DNA of 64,000 bases from Microcoleus sp. bin38.metabat.b11b12b14.051 (GTDB lineage Bacteria; Cyanobacteriota; Cyanobacteriia; Cyanobacteriales; Microcoleaceae), in NCBI RefSeq assembly GCF_013299165.1, contig NZ_JAAFKD010000023.1:14949-78948 (forward strand), read 5' to 3'. Shown here in pieces: positions 2,691-57,966 of this stretch. The position numbers and the translations under genes were made by a program. Positions within the stretch are counted from its first letter, which is position 1. Each line of letters begins with the position of its first letter. The notes beneath the pieces were generated by a model. It was not told the origin of the DNA. It saw only the letters and a program-made list of their open reading frames with translations, and did no database searches.

Positions 2691-2905
2691 AGTAGGGTGC
2701 GTCAGCTAGAGTTTTTTGTGAATAATTGAGAGTTGAATAACTGACGCACCTTGCAGCCTTGTGGTGCGTCAGTTAGTAGGGTGCGTCAGCTAGAGTTTTT
2801 AGTGGATAATTAAGAGTTGAATAACTGACGCACCTTGCAGCTATGTGGTGCGTCAGTTTCTGCGATTTCAAACAAATCTCTCAACTTCGGCTGACGCACC
2901 CTACA
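2691..2905. repeat. REP-like palindromic array (GTAGGGTGCGTCAG / CTGACGCACC)
   Basis: 4 forward GGTGCGTCAG and 3 reverse CTGACGCACC copies; the intervening segments are themselves repeated. Confidence 0.9.
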
Positions 2906-2917
2906 ACTTGACTTATA

Positions 2918-3370
2918 ATGTTATCTAAAAACTGGGACAAAGAGTTAACTGAGGAAAATCTCCGAGATCAAATAGCCCAAGCCAAGCAAGCATGGAAAAC
3001 CGCTGAGGCTACAGAGCCGCGTGCCGAATCCGTGCAGTACAATCAGTCGGAAGATTTAATTGTTATTAAACTCAAAAACGGTGCTATTTTCTGTTTTCCT
3101 CCGCGGCTTGCACAAGGCTTAGAAAGCGCTTCACCAGAACAACTTGCTGATGTTTGGCTACCGCCTTCAGGTAACAGCGTACACTGGGAAAGTCTAGATG
3201 TTGATTTTGGCATTCCTGAACTTGTCGCAGGTATTTTTGGGACAAAATATTGGATGGCTGAATTAGGCAGAAAGGGAGGAGAAGCAACTTCCAGCGCTAA
3301 ATCGGCAGCAGCACGGAAAAATGGCAAGAAAGGGGGACGCCCTAAAAAGAATATTTCCCTTAATTCTTGA
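2918..3370 (+). CDS. DUF2442 domain protein (antitoxin-like)
   Basis: LIVIKLKNGAIFCFP...GLESASPEQL...SVHWESLDVDFGIPELVAGIFG, with the typical basic tail AARKNGKKGGRPKK. Confidence 0.8.
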   Translation: MLSKNWDKELTEENLRDQIAQAKQAWKTAEATEPRAESVQYNQSEDLIVIKLKNGAIFCFPPRLAQGLESASPEQLADVWLPPSGNSVHWESLDVDFGIPELVAGIFGTKYWMAELGRKGGEATSSAKSAAARKNGKKGGRPKKNISLNS

Positions 3371-3404
3371 TGCCAAATAGACATAAATTACTTACAATCA
3401 ATTA

Positions 3405-3852
3405 GGTAGGGTGCGTCAGCTAGGTTTTTTTTGCATAATTTAGAGTATAATAACTGACGCACCTTACAGCTAGGTGGTGCGTCAGTTTCTGCGATTTCAA
3501 ACAAGTCTCTCAACTTCGGACTGACGCACCCTACAACTGTTTAGTTAGTAGGGTGCGTCAGCTAGAGTTTTTAGTGGATAATTGAGAGTTTACAAACTGA
3601 CGCACCTTACAGCTAGGTGGTGCGTCAGTTTCTGCGATTTCAAACAAGTCTCTCAACTTCGGACTGACGCACCCTACAACTGTTTAGTTAGTAGGGTGCG
3701 TCAGCTGATAGAGCAGGTTTCAGTTAGTAGGGTGCGTCAGCTAGAGTTTTTGTGCATAATTGAGAGTTTACAAACTGACGCACCTTGCCGCCTGGTGGTG
3801 CGTCAGTTTCTGCAATTTCAAACAAGTCTCTCAACTTCGGACTGACGCACCA
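3405..3852. repeat. REP-like palindromic array with about 143-bp higher-order period
   Basis: 7 forward and 6 reverse copies of the same 10-mer; unit starts near 3409, 3552 and 3695. Confidence 0.9.
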
Positions 3853-52282: not shown

Positions 52283-52570
52283 GTTGGAAACGCGATAAAT
52301 CTCCGAAAAACCCGGTTTTGTTTAACAAGCCGGGTTTTCTTAATTAGTTGTAGGGTGCGTCAGGGCTAAATGTTGTGATACCAGACTAACAATTTTATCC
52401 CTGACGCACCGTATAGTTATACCAATTTGCATAACTCTTGCAACATTATTCGTAGGGTGTGTCGCCACCGACAGTATCCAAAAATAGATGAAAAATCTAG
52501 CGAGCGACGCACCATCGACTATATATGAATAAACTTGCCTCAACCTTAATTATTGCAAGGATTTTTCACG

Positions 52571-52744
52571 CTTGGTATTACCACACAAAACTCTGGTGCG
52601 TCGCTGTAAGATTGTCAATAGTTGTTTGGAATTTTCTGTGGCGACGCACCCTACGACTTGGTATTACCACACAAAACTCTGGTGCGTCGCTGTAAGATTG
52701 TCAATAGTTGTTTGGTAATTTTCGAGGGCGACGCACCCTACGAC
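52571..52744. repeat. Two tandem 86-bp copies with GGTGCGTCGC...GCGACGCACC hairpin
   Basis: CTTGGTATTACCACACAAAACTCTGG at 52571 and 52657. Confidence 0.88.
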
Positions 52745-52781
52745 TAAAATCTAAAATCTAAAATCTAAAATCTAAAATCGA

Positions 52782-54260
52782 ATGGCTTTCAATCCCAATA
52801 ACTGTCGCAACGAAAGCGAAGTAGAAAGCAAACTTATTGTCAGCTATCTGTTGCCAAAACTCGGCTATACCCCCGACACTTGGCACCAAGAAATCGCCTT
52901 TGGGAATATTCGCCTAGACTTCCTTTCCTTTGCTACCCAAGTTATCCCGATCGTTCTCGATGCAGACTCGCCCATGAGTTTAGTCATGGAAGCCAAACAT
53001 CCCAAGGAAAATCTAGATCGCCATCTGCGAAAACTCAAGCGTTACTTAACAAGTTTAAGCATCGGCTACGGACTGCTAACTAACGGTAAAGAAATTAGAA
53101 TCTATGCAAGAGTCAATGATGATATTGAGTTAGCATTTCAGTGCGCGGGACAAGATATTGAAACTAAAATTGATGAAATTATCGCTTTGATAGGTAGAGA
53201 TAATTTAAAAGTTGTAAAAAATCCAGATAATTTAGAACTGGAAGATAGTAAAATTAATTTAGTTAGTCCTGAGTTAATTAGCGAAATACCAGTACAACCC
53301 AACAATCCCGCCACTGCAAAACCTGAGCCAATTCAAATCTCAGAACCGGAACAAATACCTGATTTAATCGTTCCAGAAACAAGAGAAAACACTATGAAAA
53401 TAATTGCAGTTTACCATAACAAAGGCGGCGTAGGCAAAACTACAACTGTAGTCAATTTAGCCGCAGCACTGAGCAAAGAAGGTAAAAGAGTTCTAGTCAT
53501 CGACTTAGATAGTCAGGCAAATACCACCTTTGCGACTGGTTTAGTAAAATTTGAAGATGAAGAACAAGACGATTTGAAAGATTGCAATATTCTGCAAGTT
53601 CTGCAATCAGAGGATTTTTACTCGATCGCCGAAGTAGCTCGCCCGTCGAATTTTTGCAATCCCCCAATTGATGTAGTTCCTTCCCACATCGATTTAATGT
53701 ACTATGAAACGGAACTAAATCAGCTAGATTACAGTCGCATGATTTTGATTCAAAAACTAGCAGAAGTACAAGACAAGTACGATATTGTACTGATTGATAC
53801 GCCTCCATCTTTGAATTTTTTCGCCAGAGTTGCCCTAATTGCTGCCGATTATTTAATTATTCCTTCTGACTTAAAACCGTTTGCTAATCAAGGATTGATT
53901 AATGTCAAAGATTTTATTAAAAAAATTAATGGATTCAAAAAACAAATCGGCAAGAAACCTTTAGAAGTTTTAGGCGTTCTCCCTTGCAAAATCTCACCTA
54001 ATCCTAAATTTGTACAGTACAGTTTGCCCAAGCGTAGGGAAGCAATTCCTAAACGCTACGGCCTGGAAATTATGGAGAATGCAATTTATGAGAGAGAGGA
54101 TTTAGCAAAGTGTGCAGAACTATTTAAAATTGTGGGGAATATTGAAATTGCAGATCCGATTTCGGTGCTCGATTTTAAACCAGATTGCCTCTCATCGCAA
54201 GAATTTGAAATGCTAGCCGAAGAAGTTTTGGCAAAAATAGTTCATTCAGTTGACAGTTGA
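52782..54260 (+). CDS. HsdR_N-like PD-(D/E)xK domain fused to ParA/MinD ATPase
   Basis: N-terminal NESEVESKL...LGY...RLD...VMEAK; C-terminal deviant Walker [16 protein letters not shown] and Walker B IDTPP. Confidence 0.88.
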
Positions 54261-54419
54261 CAGTTGACAGTTGACAGTTGACAGTTGACAGTTGACAGTT
54301 GACAGATGAGTGCGAGCTCTACCTGGAAGTCCGAGGATTGGACTCATAAATAGTCTGATTTTAATTTCTCGGTTACAAGAGAGAGGCTTTAAACCAATTC
54401 TTTATGGTAGTAAAAACTT

Positions 54420-55298
54420 ATGAAAAAATTATCTCCGTCACTGGTTGCAGTGAAAAGAATTACCTCCAAAGTTCCCGCTGCTAATTTTGCCGATCGCGAT
54501 TTGGATAAATTAGCCCGACTAATTTTAGATGCAGGAGGCTTGATCCATCCGATAATTGTCCGCCGCGTCGGTATTGATGCTTACGAAATAGTAGACGGAG
54601 ACTTTGAATACTATGCGGCGGCGAGAGCAAGGGAAATTAACGCTTTCAAAGGCGAGACAATCGGAGCATTTATCCTGGAACCAGAAAATGAAGAACTTCT
54701 GCTTGAACAAGTCGCCATTCTCAGAAAATCTGGAATTATTGAGAATTTAGCTGCAAATGAAACTCCCAAAGAGTCATTAATAACTGAGAATTCCAGTCAG
54801 GAAAGTGAAAGTCTGGAAGCACCATCTAGTTTTGAGCAGCGGCTGGCAAATATTGAAGCTCGGTTAGAAAATCAAATCAATGAATTGAAAGCTGAGTACA
54901 CCCGTGAAAAAGAGTTGTTAGCTGAGAGAATACAAGAAGTTGAAAATCTATTTTCACAACAACTACCTCTGTTAATTGAAGCCCAGTTAACTAACAAAAT
55001 TAATGAGTTGAAATCTGAGTCTGTCTCGGCACAACCGACTTTGGTAGATACGGTACAATCAGTTGAACAGGTAACTTCCCAACCAATGTCCCTGTTGGAC
55101 GCACTCAATACTCAAGATAAAATTCAACTGGCCGCACATTTGAAAGATGCTGGGCTGAAGCCTCCTGTTATACAACTCATACTCAAAGAGCGAGATGTGC
55201 GGCCGTTTGCATCCTTTGCAAATGTGGTGGAACGTATTAAAGGCTTAACCGACAAAACAATGATTAAAATTATTGATTGCTGGCAAAAATACTCATAG
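54420..55298 (+). CDS. ParB-like N domain + coiled coil + HhH-like C-terminus
   Basis: GGLIHPIIVRR...YEIVDGDFEYYAA; C-terminal ILKERDVRPFASFANVVERIKGL. Confidence 0.72.
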   Translation: MKKLSPSLVAVKRITSKVPAANFADRDLDKLARLILDAGGLIHPIIVRRVGIDAYEIVDGDFEYYAAARAREINAFKGETIGAFILEPENEELLLEQVAILRKSGIIENLAANETPKESLITENSSQESESLEAPSSFEQRLANIEARLENQINELKAEYTREKELLAERIQEVENLFSQQLPLLIEAQLTNKINELKSESVSAQPTLVDTVQSVEQVTSQPMSLLDALNTQDKIQLAAHLKDAGLKPPVIQLILKERDVRPFASFANVVERIKGLTDKTMIKIIDCWQKYS

Positions 55299-55844
55299 GT
55301 TGTGAGGCGTGTAAATTGCGTTTTTGGGGGCGGGCTAGAAGCCCACCCCACAAGAGTTGAAACCGAATTTCTCTAAGGTAATTGACTAGGGTAAAAATAC
55401 TTATCACTCGCAATTGCGATCGCCCGTTAGCGAAGTCCTCGAAGCCGATCGCCAAAAAAAGTAAAGATGAGTGAAGCAGTGTATAATTTGTGTCCCCCAG
55501 CCAGTTAAACTCATCACAGTTGATTTTTTGTAGGAATTGCAGTCAGTTTTGCCGTTAGCGAAGCCCGCCCCTACGGGGGCTACGCCAACGAAGAGGATCG
55601 CCCAGGCTGTCACCCCACAGCCAGCCGCACAGGTACAGCACGCCGCCGATATCTCTCCCAGACTTCGAGATTGAGGCCAACAAATCCTTTAACTAACCAC
55701 AGTCTGGGTAAGGTGTTTGTCTCGCACCCTATAATTAGACTTCTTGGGTTAGTCCTGTGGTACTTAAAACCCAGGCTGTAAAGTCCAAATATACATCATT
55801 ACCCAAACACCTGATTTTAATGACAAAAGGGGACTTGTAACAAG

Positions 55845-56945
55845 ATGGATCGATCGCAAGATCAAAACCGAATAGTTGAATATTTGCGGATTAAGCCAAT
55901 TAGTCACAGTCAGATTTATACTTCCCAAATTGCAGTACCAGAGACTCAGGGGGGGGAAATCCCTCGCGAACGTCGGGAAGCTCTTAGGAGAAGTCTCATC
56001 GAGCAAGGCAGCAACTTAATTCCTTTAATTGTACGTCATACTGAAGCTTACAGCAACGAAGAAGAATACGAAGTTGTCTGCGGAGCGGATTGGTGTATTG
56101 TTGCCAAAGAACTCGGCATTGAGCAAATGTGGGCTTGGGTTTTTGAAATGACCGACGATGAGGTAGTTGCTGCTCAAGCAGAAATGGAACATTTAGCTCC
56201 GCAGCCTACTCAGAAAACTGCACAAATCGAGACTATACTGCAACAATTTGAGCTATCATTTCAAAATAAAGTAGAGAGTCTAACAAAACAAATAGAACAA
56301 TCTGTTAAAAAGAATGAAGACCTGCTAAAAAAACAAGTTAAAGCTCTAACAGAGCAGAACTTTGATAGCGACCAAATAACACAGATCAAGCATCTGCTAG
56401 AACAAGTTGAAAAAACATTCCATGAAAAGGTAGATAAATTGGCTAAAAAAATTGAACAATCTGGCAGCAATAGTTCTCCGAAATCTGCGGTTATTTCGGA
56501 GATGAATCTTGAAGGTGCGTTAAGACAGTTGGATGAAGTAGAAAAACTGCTGTCAATAAAATTAGAGCGCACAGTCCAAATAATTAATCAGTTTGTCGCC
56601 GACTCGATCGCAGATGTAGAAAATGACCTAAAAAATCAAATTGCCACGCTCCGCAGCCAACTGGGAGCCGCTGCGATGCACTCAGAAGTACAGCCGGAGA
56701 CACCGCCGAAAAAGCAATCGAAGGCGCAGCCTAAAACCCCGGCGAAGAAGCAGTCGAAGGCGCAGTCGAAACCTCAGCTACCGCAGTTGCAGTTAGAGTT
56801 GCCGTTTCCGCCCCAAGAGGAAGACTATGATACTCTGTCGCTGAGGCGCTTAAAGGCGATCGGCAAAGACCGTAAAGTCCGCGGCTACGCGCGCATGAAA
56901 CGACCGGAAATTCTGGCGGCTCTTAGAGAAGCTGATAGTAAATAA
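55845..56945 (+). CDS. ParB-like N domain + coiled coil + Rho_N-like C-terminus
   Basis: GSNLIPLIVR...YEVVCGADWC; C-terminal YDTLSLRRLKAIGKDRKVRGYARMKRPEILAAL. Confidence 0.72.
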   Translation: MDRSQDQNRIVEYLRIKPISHSQIYTSQIAVPETQGGEIPRERREALRRSLIEQGSNLIPLIVRHTEAYSNEEEYEVVCGADWCIVAKELGIEQMWAWVFEMTDDEVVAAQAEMEHLAPQPTQKTAQIETILQQFELSFQNKVESLTKQIEQSVKKNEDLLKKQVKALTEQNFDSDQITQIKHLLEQVEKTFHEKVDKLAKKIEQSGSNSSPKSAVISEMNLEGALRQLDEVEKLLSIKLERTVQIINQFVADSIADVENDLKNQIATLRSQLGAAAMHSEVQPETPPKKQSKAQPKTPAKKQSKAQSKPQLPQLQLELPFPPQEEDYDTLSLRRLKAIGKDRKVRGYARMKRPEILAALREADSK

Positions 56946-57156: not shown

Positions 57157-57966
57157 ATGTCCGCAACCGCAGAATTAGTTACTCCCCAAGAAATACCAGA
57201 ACAAGAAATACTAGAACCAGAGCTACTAGAACCAGAGCTACCCGAAAATATTATTGTTCCTCCAGTCGATTTATATAGTGATGAACCTCCAGTGGAAACA
57301 GAACTGCATCTCCGACAAATAATGCTGCTGTTCAAGTGTTTAGAATGGTTGTGGCGAGATATAAATGACTTCTATGCTGCCGGCAACCTCACTATTTACT
57401 ACAGCCCCAAGCAACTTAAATCGAAAGACTTCCGAGGCCCAGACTTTTTTGTGGTACTTGGAACAGAACGCAAAACTCGGAAAAGCTGGGTGGTTTGGGA
57501 TGAAGATGGAAAGTACCCAAATATCATTCTGGAAATCCTGTCGCCGCAAACAGCGAACATAGATAAAAACTTTAAAAAAAAACTGTATCAAGATACCTTC
57601 CGTACTCATGATTACTTTTGGTTCGATCCTGAAACTTTAGAATTAGCTGGGTTTCATTTAGTTGATGGGGAATATCAACCAATTGCACCGAATGAATTCG
57701 GCTATCTGCGGAGTCAACAGCTTGATTTGAGTTTGGGGATTTGTAGCGGACAATTGCGTTTCTTTACAGCAGCAGGTGAATTGGTTCCTACTCCTGAAGA
57801 AGTTGCAGAAAGGGAGACAGGGCGAGCTGATGCAGAGGCTCAAAGAGCTGAAAATCAGACTCAACGAGCCGAAAATCAAGCTCAACGAGCCGAAAATCAA
57901 GCTCGACGAGCCGATCGCCTGGCCGCAAAATTACGAGAATTAAATATCGATCCCGATACAATTTAG
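57157..57966 (+). CDS. Uma2-family endonuclease with C-terminal heptad repeats
   Basis: GPDFFVV, PNIILEILSP, DYFWFDP; tail of AQRAENQ repeats. Confidence 0.9.
   Translation: MSATAELVTPQEIPEQEILEPELLEPELPENIIVPPVDLYSDEPPVETELHLRQIMLLFKCLEWLWRDINDFYAAGNLTIYYSPKQLKSKDFRGPDFFVVLGTERKTRKSWVVWDEDGKYPNIILEILSPQTANIDKNFKKKLYQDTFRTHDYFWFDPETLELAGFHLVDGEYQPIAPNEFGYLRSQQLDLSLGICSGQLRFFTAAGELVPTPEEVAERETGRADAEAQRAENQTQRAENQAQRAENQARRADRLAAKLRELNIDPDTI

Follow-up and report, generated by a model that had tools for sequence, protein, structure and literature searches.

A predicted nuclease-ParA fusion with ParB-like adaptors in Microcoleus: a probable member of the cyanobacterial effector-ParAB family with a second adaptor

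The ParA/ParB pair is the textbook DNA-partition machine. In Microcoleus sp. bin38.metabat.b11b12b14.051, three genes join the two-protein logic of this machine to a predicted nuclease and appear to have removed its CTP switch. They lie in a stretch of 64,000 nucleotides (the window; contig NZ_JAAFKD010000023.1, C16:14949-78948) of a 7.07-Mb genome that is 99.85% complete and whose closest relatives all belong to Microcoleus or Tychonema. The open reading frame (ORF) list contains all three genes of the original prediction, each on the + strand. Gene 1 (52782-54260) encodes a fusion of a restriction-endonuclease (REase) domain with ParA, 492 amino acids long, as judged from its ORF, translation and Pfam matches. 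Gene 2 (54420-55298, 292 amino acids) encodes a type A ParB-like adaptor, recognised by Pfam, alignment, an AlphaFold (AF2) model and its position after gene 1, and gene 3 (55845-56945, 366 amino acids) a type B ParB-like protein, recognised by Pfam, its homologues and its position downstream of the pair. Genes 1 and 2 are very probably a cyanobacterial, REase-type member of the 'effector-ParAB system', which was described computationally, with a predicted immune role against invading DNA, by Li, Burroughs, and Aravind on 22 October 2026 (bioRxiv 10.64898/2026.10.19.760177). Gene 3 is a second adaptor that comes from a paralogous cassette of the same family and stands beside the pair only in Microcoleus-type genomes.

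In gene 1, residues 1-145 (52782-53216, + strand) constitute a PD-(D/E)xK nuclease domain of the HsdR-N type, residues 146-203 (53217-53390, + strand) a linker rich in Pro and Glu and variable in length, and residues 204-492 (53391-54257, + strand) an ATPase of the ParA/Soj type. The Pfam scan gives AAA_31 at residues 205-384 (E 4e-56) and HSDR_N_2 at residues 17-111 (E 5e-5; 23.8 bits, just under the cut-off of 25). The putative catalytic residues D46, E70 and K72 are invariant in 19 homologues, which include both of the cassette types defined below. The AlphaFold model of residues 1-150 has a pLDDT of 86, with values under 50 at residues 147-150, and Foldseek matches the head to restriction-endonuclease folds, among them 3h1t, an N-terminal fragment of HsdR, at a TM-score of 0.55 and probability 1.0; 9y1l, BpuSI (3s1s listed), EcoR124I HsdR and EndoMS are further matches, and 4bec is also listed. 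From alignment and model together, the head is best described as a restriction-endonuclease fold whose predicted catalytic triad looks intact. The ParA half contains Walker A, A' and B together with IDTPP, matches Soj/ParA sequences in the PDB, and is the best AAA_31 match in the source genome. It also carries the PriB1/ConB1 signatures named by the authors of that preprint, in whose tree the ParA of the effector-ParAB system falls in the ConB1 clade: an N ahead of Walker A, a V within KGGVGKT and a Q at the second position past DxD. Homologues of gene 1 are at least 77% identical across Microcoleus/Tychonema. The proposal that an HsdR_N-like PD-(D/E)xK domain is joined to ParA is thus borne out by HSDR_N_2, AAA_31, the motifs and the invariant triad, and the N-terminus does model as the fold that was proposed.

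An insertion of about 150 bp (54243-54400, + strand), recognised by repeat search and by comparison with close relatives, is specific to this lineage and places about nine CAGTTGA heptamers at the very boundary between genes 1 and 2. It exchanges the usual C-terminus of gene 1, …KIGK, for …KIVHSVDS, and it accounts for the gap of 160 bp between the two genes in the window, compared with 8 nt from the stop of gene 1 to the start of gene 2 in close relatives. A second heptamer array, with five copies of AAAATCT, adjoins the start of gene 1 (52746-52781).

Gene 2 begins with a ParB N-terminal (CTPase-fold) domain at residues 13-106 (54456-54737, + strand), found by the ParB_N model, by a Noc/Spo0J profile alignment and by Foldseek. 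In Pfam both ParB_N (E 2e-7) and DUF655 (E 1e-4) score above the cut-off. The AF2 model shows the ParB_N fold followed by a disordered stretch, one 64-residue helix at residues 137-200 (54828-55019, + strand), which may form a coiled coil for dimerisation, and a C-terminal domain of five helices. Foldseek matches the model to the N-terminal domains of Noc, Spo0J, ParB and KorB with probability 1.0, and also to the helix-hairpin-helix (HhH) protein AF1531 and the N-lobe of RAD51. The tail, residues 225-291 (55092-55292, + strand), is accordingly described as an HhH-type domain resembling DUF655/AF1531, with PDB 2i5h as both a sequence and a Foldseek match. The length and sequence of the long helix differ among homologues.

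In gene 3, a ParB_N-like domain occupies residues 41-109 (55965-56171, + strand) and a Rho_N (HeH/SAP-like) domain residues 330-364 (56832-56936, + strand), after a tract rich in Lys, Pro and Gln. Both Pfam matches, ParB_N and Rho_N (each E 1e-4), fall just below the cut-off; profile-profile comparison with hhalign aligns the gene 3 family to the gene 2 family across the ParB_N region with 95.5% probability, and many homologues of gene 3 carry precomputed PF07498 (Rho_N) matches. Some are annotated elsewhere as 'Rho termination factor (modular protein)'. The N-terminal domain is the best conserved part of gene 3 (88-97% identity), and in type B partners of other genera the Rho_N tail is replaced by a ComEA-like HhH domain.

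Both adaptors have lost the arginines of the CTP-binding motif. Where ParB reads GERRxRAA in box II, gene 2 reads GDFEYYAA and gene 3 GADWCIVA. The pattern G[DHY][FL]EYYA[AS] is present in 13 of 15 homologues of gene 2, with G, Y and A invariant, and the arginines are replaced throughout both families. We infer that both adaptors lack CTP binding of the ParB type. The Pfam scan of the trio gave no HTH_ParB match, and the gene 2 model contains no helix-turn-helix (HTH). The motif LG-R/K-GL, which is the N-terminal ParA-binding motif of ParB (bioRxiv 10.1101/2025.10.10.680097), is also absent, as the N-termini read MKKLSPSLVAVK in gene 2 and MDRSQDQNRIVEY in gene 3. The earlier description of a ParB-like fold at the start of each protein, of missing arginines, and of an HhH or Rho_N-like tail in place of the usual HTH therefore holds in all three respects, and of the long coiled coils that were assigned to both proteins, the one of gene 2 has a putative counterpart in the modelled helix.

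Canonical partners were searched for throughout the source genome. No parS with zero or one mismatch is present, and matches with two mismatches occur at the rate of control patterns, which extends to the whole genome the earlier remark that no canonical parS lies nearby. No ParB scores above the TIGR00180 cut-off in the source genome. A third ORF with a ParB_N match (30.6 bits, above the cut-off) is situated outside the window at C48:21429-21629, where it is truncated by the end of a 21.7-kb contig; the complete gene, the rest of which would be missing from the assembly, could encode another ParB-like protein or a canonical ParB. The 86-bp direct repeats with GACGCACCCTAC motifs upstream of gene 1 (52340-52745) have an iteron-like appearance, and a centromere was considered; the motif has 381 copies genome-wide, and these elements are a dispersed repeat family, not parS. 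Such repeats recur at 2692-3738 of the window. They are intergenic, occur in either orientation and are frequently arranged as tandem units of about 80-100 bp.

The 547-bp gap between genes 2 and 3 contains a strongly conserved stretch of non-coding DNA, a block of about 110 bp (55445-55556, no strand assigned). Across 19 Microcoleus-type loci, most positions of the block are at least 90% identical, whereas the sequence on either side diverges and contains insertions and deletions. It is unique in the genome and contains two CAGTCnnTTTT direct repeats, 33 nt apart, and the extended -10-like box TGTATAAT. An RNA element was considered and rejected, as the gap has no Rfam match over threshold and the block shows no covariation supporting RNA structure. 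The block is probably a promoter or operator of gene 3 acting at the DNA level, and it may be a binding site for the ParB-like proteins. Downstream of the trio, at 57157-57966 of the window, is a gene for a putative restriction endonuclease of the Uma2 family, the C-terminus of which has tandem QRAENQ(T/A) repeats.

The distribution of these genes shows which of them belong together. In a sample of 301 cyanobacterial genomes from 133 genera, 62 genomes and 38 genera contained fusions of the nuclease head to ParA, in ORFs of 450-500 amino acids. Two classes are distinguished: type A consists of a fusion followed by a homologue of gene 2, and type B of a second, divergent fusion, with a head 23-37% identical, followed by a homologue of gene 3. 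The type A fusion occurs in about 455 species of the GTDB set, a count made with the type A alignment only. A homologue of gene 2 directly follows gene 1 in all 16 distant loci and in 67 of 68 close loci, on the same strand, and its start either overlaps gene 1 or is at most about 16 nt away in these relatives. The flanks of the 16 distant loci are unrelated. Of the 16 type B genomes in the sample, 15 have the two genes of the type B pair side by side, for example tll1395/tll1394 in Thermosynechococcus BP-1, and a genome usually has one type of cassette. In six loci of the Nostocales type, all from one family (L042, L047, L049, L055, L056 and L059), a separate gene for a ParA-family protein of 294 amino acids is situated 0.3-2 kb from the REase-ParA gene; its equivalent in the source genome is on another contig (C18:86131).

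Microcoleus-type genomes combine the type A pair with the type B partner and have no type B ParA. All three genes stand together in 62 of 67 informative Microcoleus-type loci and in none of five informative loci farther away, and gene 3 is not beside the pair in 15 of the 16 distant type A loci. Of the five close loci without the trio, four retain just genes 1 and 2, and in the fifth (L127) neither gene 2 nor the ParA half is seen. Elsewhere the gene 3 homologue is found alone in a genome without any fusion ParA (G240), 1 Mb from its ParA in another (G054), and split by stops, as a pseudogene, in a third (G300). In two close relatives, Lyngbya sp. CCAP 1446/10 (L075) and a metagenome-assembled genome (L076), genes 2 and 3 are set apart by about 2.5 kb of additional DNA. 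The original prediction of a three-component module therefore stands as far as a non-canonical ParA/ParB-like module is concerned, but the three genes are not one unit, since genes 1 and 2 form the pair and gene 3 belongs to a paralogous cassette. Likewise, genes 1 and 2 co-occur widely, but the full triad is kept only in Microcoleus-type loci. A special association with filamentous cyanobacteria was not supported by the survey, as the pair is also found in the unicellular Synechococcus PCC 7002 and Synechocystis PCC 7338, and type B in Thermosynechococcus BP-1.

The presence of the pair is patchy, amounting to about half of the genomes of the order, with 2 of 8 and 2 of 5 genomes in two genera. 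A tree of gene 1 rejects the monophyly of two GTDB families (AU test, p 1.4e-4 and 7e-35; the groups were named after the tree was seen). Horizontal transfer of the whole cassette was rejected as the cause, as the REase head tracks taxonomy, with 75-97% identity within family f7, and only the ParA/adaptor half crosses families. In domain-wise identities, the ParA domain and the N-terminal domain of the adaptor fall into types that cut across families; at two f7 loci (L042 and L047), ParA is 72-74% identical to that of Microcoleus and only 50-58% identical to that of other f7 members. The incongruence of the gene tree is explained by this exchange behind a head that follows taxonomy. Judging from these identities, the ParA half appears to be exchanged at the linker junction of gene 1 (residues 146-203). 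The identities of ParA and of the adaptor N-terminal domain co-vary (rho 0.63), as expected if the two proteins are an interacting pair. The nearest ParA relatives (49-56% identity) have RloB, an SF1 helicase, HSDR_N_2 or no Pfam-recognised domain at their N-terminus.

A link to cyanophage came from the ParB_N subtype of gene 2. Its best PDB match, at E 1.5e-9 and better than any ParB, is gp27 of the Anabaena podophage A4; in phage A-4L/A4 this ejection protein, which contacts DNA, has 1717 amino acids. The ParB_N-like segment, which also lacks the arginines, spans residues 1343-1406 of PDB 9k3a_B (NC_024358.1, 21052-21267) and is 40% identical to the Nostoc orthologue of gene 2. A search of 50,697 phage records with the Nostoc orthologue matched only phage A-4L. 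The N-terminal domain of the window's own gene 2 matched no phage, and only the Nostoc orthologue and the family profile reach A-4L. The paper on the structure of gp27 (PDB 9k3a) mentions no ParB-like domain. An origin of the locus from a plasmid or phage was considered and rejected, on the grounds that no PLSDB plasmid carries the fusion and that this domain of the window has no phage match.

In the reading favoured here, genes 1 and 2 are an effector-ParAB member that has gene 3 as a second, borrowed adaptor, and the system acts against invaders. The membership itself is the firmer part; with the function included, we regard the reading as having about an even chance of being correct. The ParA half would dimerise with ATP and bind DNA non-specifically, and in this way carry the PD-(D/E)xK head onto DNA. 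The ParB-like adaptor would dimerise through its long helix, with its HhH (gene 2) or HeH (gene 3) tail binding DNA, while its arginine-less ParB_N domain and basic N-terminus would engage ParA and tune the ATPase. This contact between adaptor and ParA would set the site and the dwell time of the nuclease-ParA on DNA. Because such an adaptor would be unable to bind CTP in the manner of ParB, no sliding clamp loaded at parS is expected. The likeliest target would be incoming foreign DNA, from phage or plasmid, as proposed in the describing preprint, and not the partition of the cell's own chromosome. One experiment bears on the latter point. In Synechococcus sp. PCC 7002 (locus L046), the gene 2 homologue is exactly SYNPCC7002_A0433, labelled 'ParB family chromosome partitioning protein', which makes A0432 the gene 1 homologue immediately upstream of it. 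Moore, Tay, and Cameron regarded A0432 as the chromosomal parA of this organism; its deletion impaired neither growth nor segregation, and no signal of ParB-sfGFP could be seen (bioRxiv 10.1101/661256). In PCC 7002 the system is therefore not needed for chromosome inheritance. Patchy presence, exchange of the ParA/adaptor half, alternative effectors in relatives, the gp27 link and the lack of parS and of a canonical ParB above the cut-off are counted in favour of a role against invaders.

Several observations weigh against this role. The loci are single-copy and chromosomal, and the fusion occurs on no PLSDB plasmid. The 64 flanking ORFs at 17 loci, classified with Pfam and PADLOC, are mostly metabolic or housekeeping genes with few defence-like matches, and this survey gave no sign of the enrichment near defence islands that the original prediction had proposed to check; PADLOC has no specific model for the system. 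Compared with a genus of the same family, the REase and ParA domains are 65-67% identical and the neighbouring desaturase 65%, which is unlike the rapid change expected of genes in an arms race. In G240, gene 3 is kept although the genome has no fusion ParA, so it may not depend on gene 1. The PD-(D/E)xK triad is conserved, and nuclease activity is a prediction from it. A literature search found no experimental study of the effector-ParAB system and none showing defence.

Some of these observations also sustain the main rival, according to which the locus is a housekeeping, nucleoid-associated system of polyploid cyanobacteria with a non-essential role, a divergent ParAB replacing ParABS. The ParB-like proteins would coat or bridge DNA by their HhH/HeH tails, and the ParA with its nuclease tip would work on the DNA of the cell itself, for instance in spacing chromosome or plasmid copies, in copy turnover, or in processing repair and recombination intermediates. 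It would fit a genome in which no canonical ParB above the cut-off and no parS were found and in which gene 1 is the best ParA-type match. It would also fit a single-copy chromosomal pair amid ordinary metabolic genes, a REase head that tracks taxonomy and is about as conserved as the desaturase, and databases that already label the pair ParA/ParB. However, about half of the genomes of the order do without the pair, and its presence varies within genera, unlike a core function; the PCC 7002 deletion left growth and chromosome segregation unaffected; families have exchanged the ParA/adaptor half; and the alternative effectors of the relatives, RloB and helicase, are hard to square with one housekeeping task. 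We therefore consider a housekeeping role possible but unlikely.

The anti-invader reading can also be carried further, to a two-sensor system in which a vertically inherited nuclease head sits on an exchangeable ParA and the two adaptors, with HhH and HeH tails, each read a different feature of invader DNA. In this elaboration, a cyanophage mimic of the adaptor (gp27 of A-4L) would jam the contact between ParA and adaptor, and the swapping of the ParA/adaptor half would be the trace of an arms race. In so specific a form the proposal is speculative, and we think it improbable.

A different arrangement would be an obligate three-component machine, in which one nuclease-ParA needs the HhH and HeH adaptors acting together. 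The retention of the trio in 62 of the 67 Microcoleus-type loci, the strong conservation of the gene 3 N-terminal domain, the conserved non-coding block before gene 3, and the lack in Microcoleus of a type B ParA for gene 3 are in line with such a machine. On the other side are the lineages in which gene 3 is not beside the pair (none of the five farther loci, and missing in 15 of 16 distant type A loci), the normal pairing of its family with a type B ParA, its solitary occurrence in G240 and G054 and its decay in G300, the five close loci that lack the trio, and the upstream region of about 550 bp that gene 3 has to itself. Taken together, these make the obligate machine quite unlikely. Finally, a selfish or addiction-type cassette, or the remnant partition system of an integrated element kept because its loss is costly, would agree with the patchy distribution, with the exchange of the ParA/adaptor half between lineages and with a nuclease domain that could serve as toxin, but it is very improbable, given that no integrase, transposase or replicon genes are consistently near, that insertion contexts vary and yet the REase head tracks taxonomy, that parA of PCC 7002 is deletable without a growth defect, and that none of the cassettes is on a PLSDB plasmid.

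Should the anti-invader role of the effector-ParAB pair prove true, it would show a segregation engine turned into a DNA-targeting weapon, and it would explain a pair that is mislabelled "chromosome partitioning" in hundreds of cyanobacterial genomes. Direct tests are within reach: a parA deletion of PCC 7002 exists, and Anabaena phage A-4L, which may carry a countermeasure of its own, could serve as a natural challenge.

Compared with chromosomal ParABS (Soj/ParA, Spo0J/ParB and parS; type Ib), the window shares a ParA with a deviant Walker A motif, a partner gene directly downstream, and, at the start of that partner, the fold of the ParB N-terminal domain, in combination with a dimerising region. 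It differs in the nuclease head of its ParA, in a partner that lacks the GERRxRA arginines, the LG-R/K-GL motif and the parS-binding HTH, and in a genome without parS. The A0432/A0433 pair of PCC 7002 is orthologous, with 58-62% identity for gene 1 and 39% for the N-terminal domain of gene 2, but it has no gene 3; its authors treated it as an ordinary ParAB and did not remark on the nuclease head and the degenerate ParB (bioRxiv 10.1101/661256). The carboxysome-positioning system McdA/McdB is likewise cyanobacterial and consists of a ParA-family ATPase and a small partner, in part a coiled coil, which differs from canonical ParB. However, McdB has neither a ParB_N fold nor an HhH/HeH domain and McdA has no nuclease domain, whereas both partners in the window have the ParB_N fold and are thus unlike McdB-type partners, which are disordered or coiled-coil. 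McdA is only a distant PDB match of gene 1 (6noo, E 5e-10), and other ParA-like genes are present elsewhere in the genome. PadC of Myxococcus xanthus resembles the adaptors in using a ParB-fold domain as a ParA adaptor and not as a parS-loaded clamp, and 6ryk is among the fold matches of gene 2; PadC binds CTP and links ParA to bactofilin, whereas the adaptors of the window lack the nucleotide-binding arginines and have a predicted DNA-binding HhH/HeH tail.

The closest likeness is to the effector-ParAB system, which is enriched in cyanobacteria; its ParA and ParB genes are operonic, ParA has an effector, most often a REase, fused to its N-terminus, and ParB, predicted to be catalytically inactive, ends in an HhH or Rho-N HeH domain that takes the place of the HTH (bioRxiv 10.64898/2026.10.19.760177). 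The window agrees in its coupled operon, its N-terminal REase, the loss of the active-site residues of ParB, the HhH/HeH tail in place of the HTH and its cyanobacterial host, and membership is assigned because every defining feature that was tested is present. The original prediction knew of no characterised system with this architecture; one had already been described, though only computationally (bioRxiv 10.64898/2026.10.19.760177). An immune role is predicted for that system, whereas the loci of the window's family have no defence-island context in the flank survey and occur also in unicellular cyanobacteria. The text of the preprint is silent on a second ParB-like gene beside the pair, on two paralogous cassette types, and on a ParA/adaptor half that is swapped while the REase head stays constant. 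The effector-ParAB architecture is thus already known in silico, and the local peculiarity of the Microcoleus locus is its second, orphaned adaptor, gene 3.

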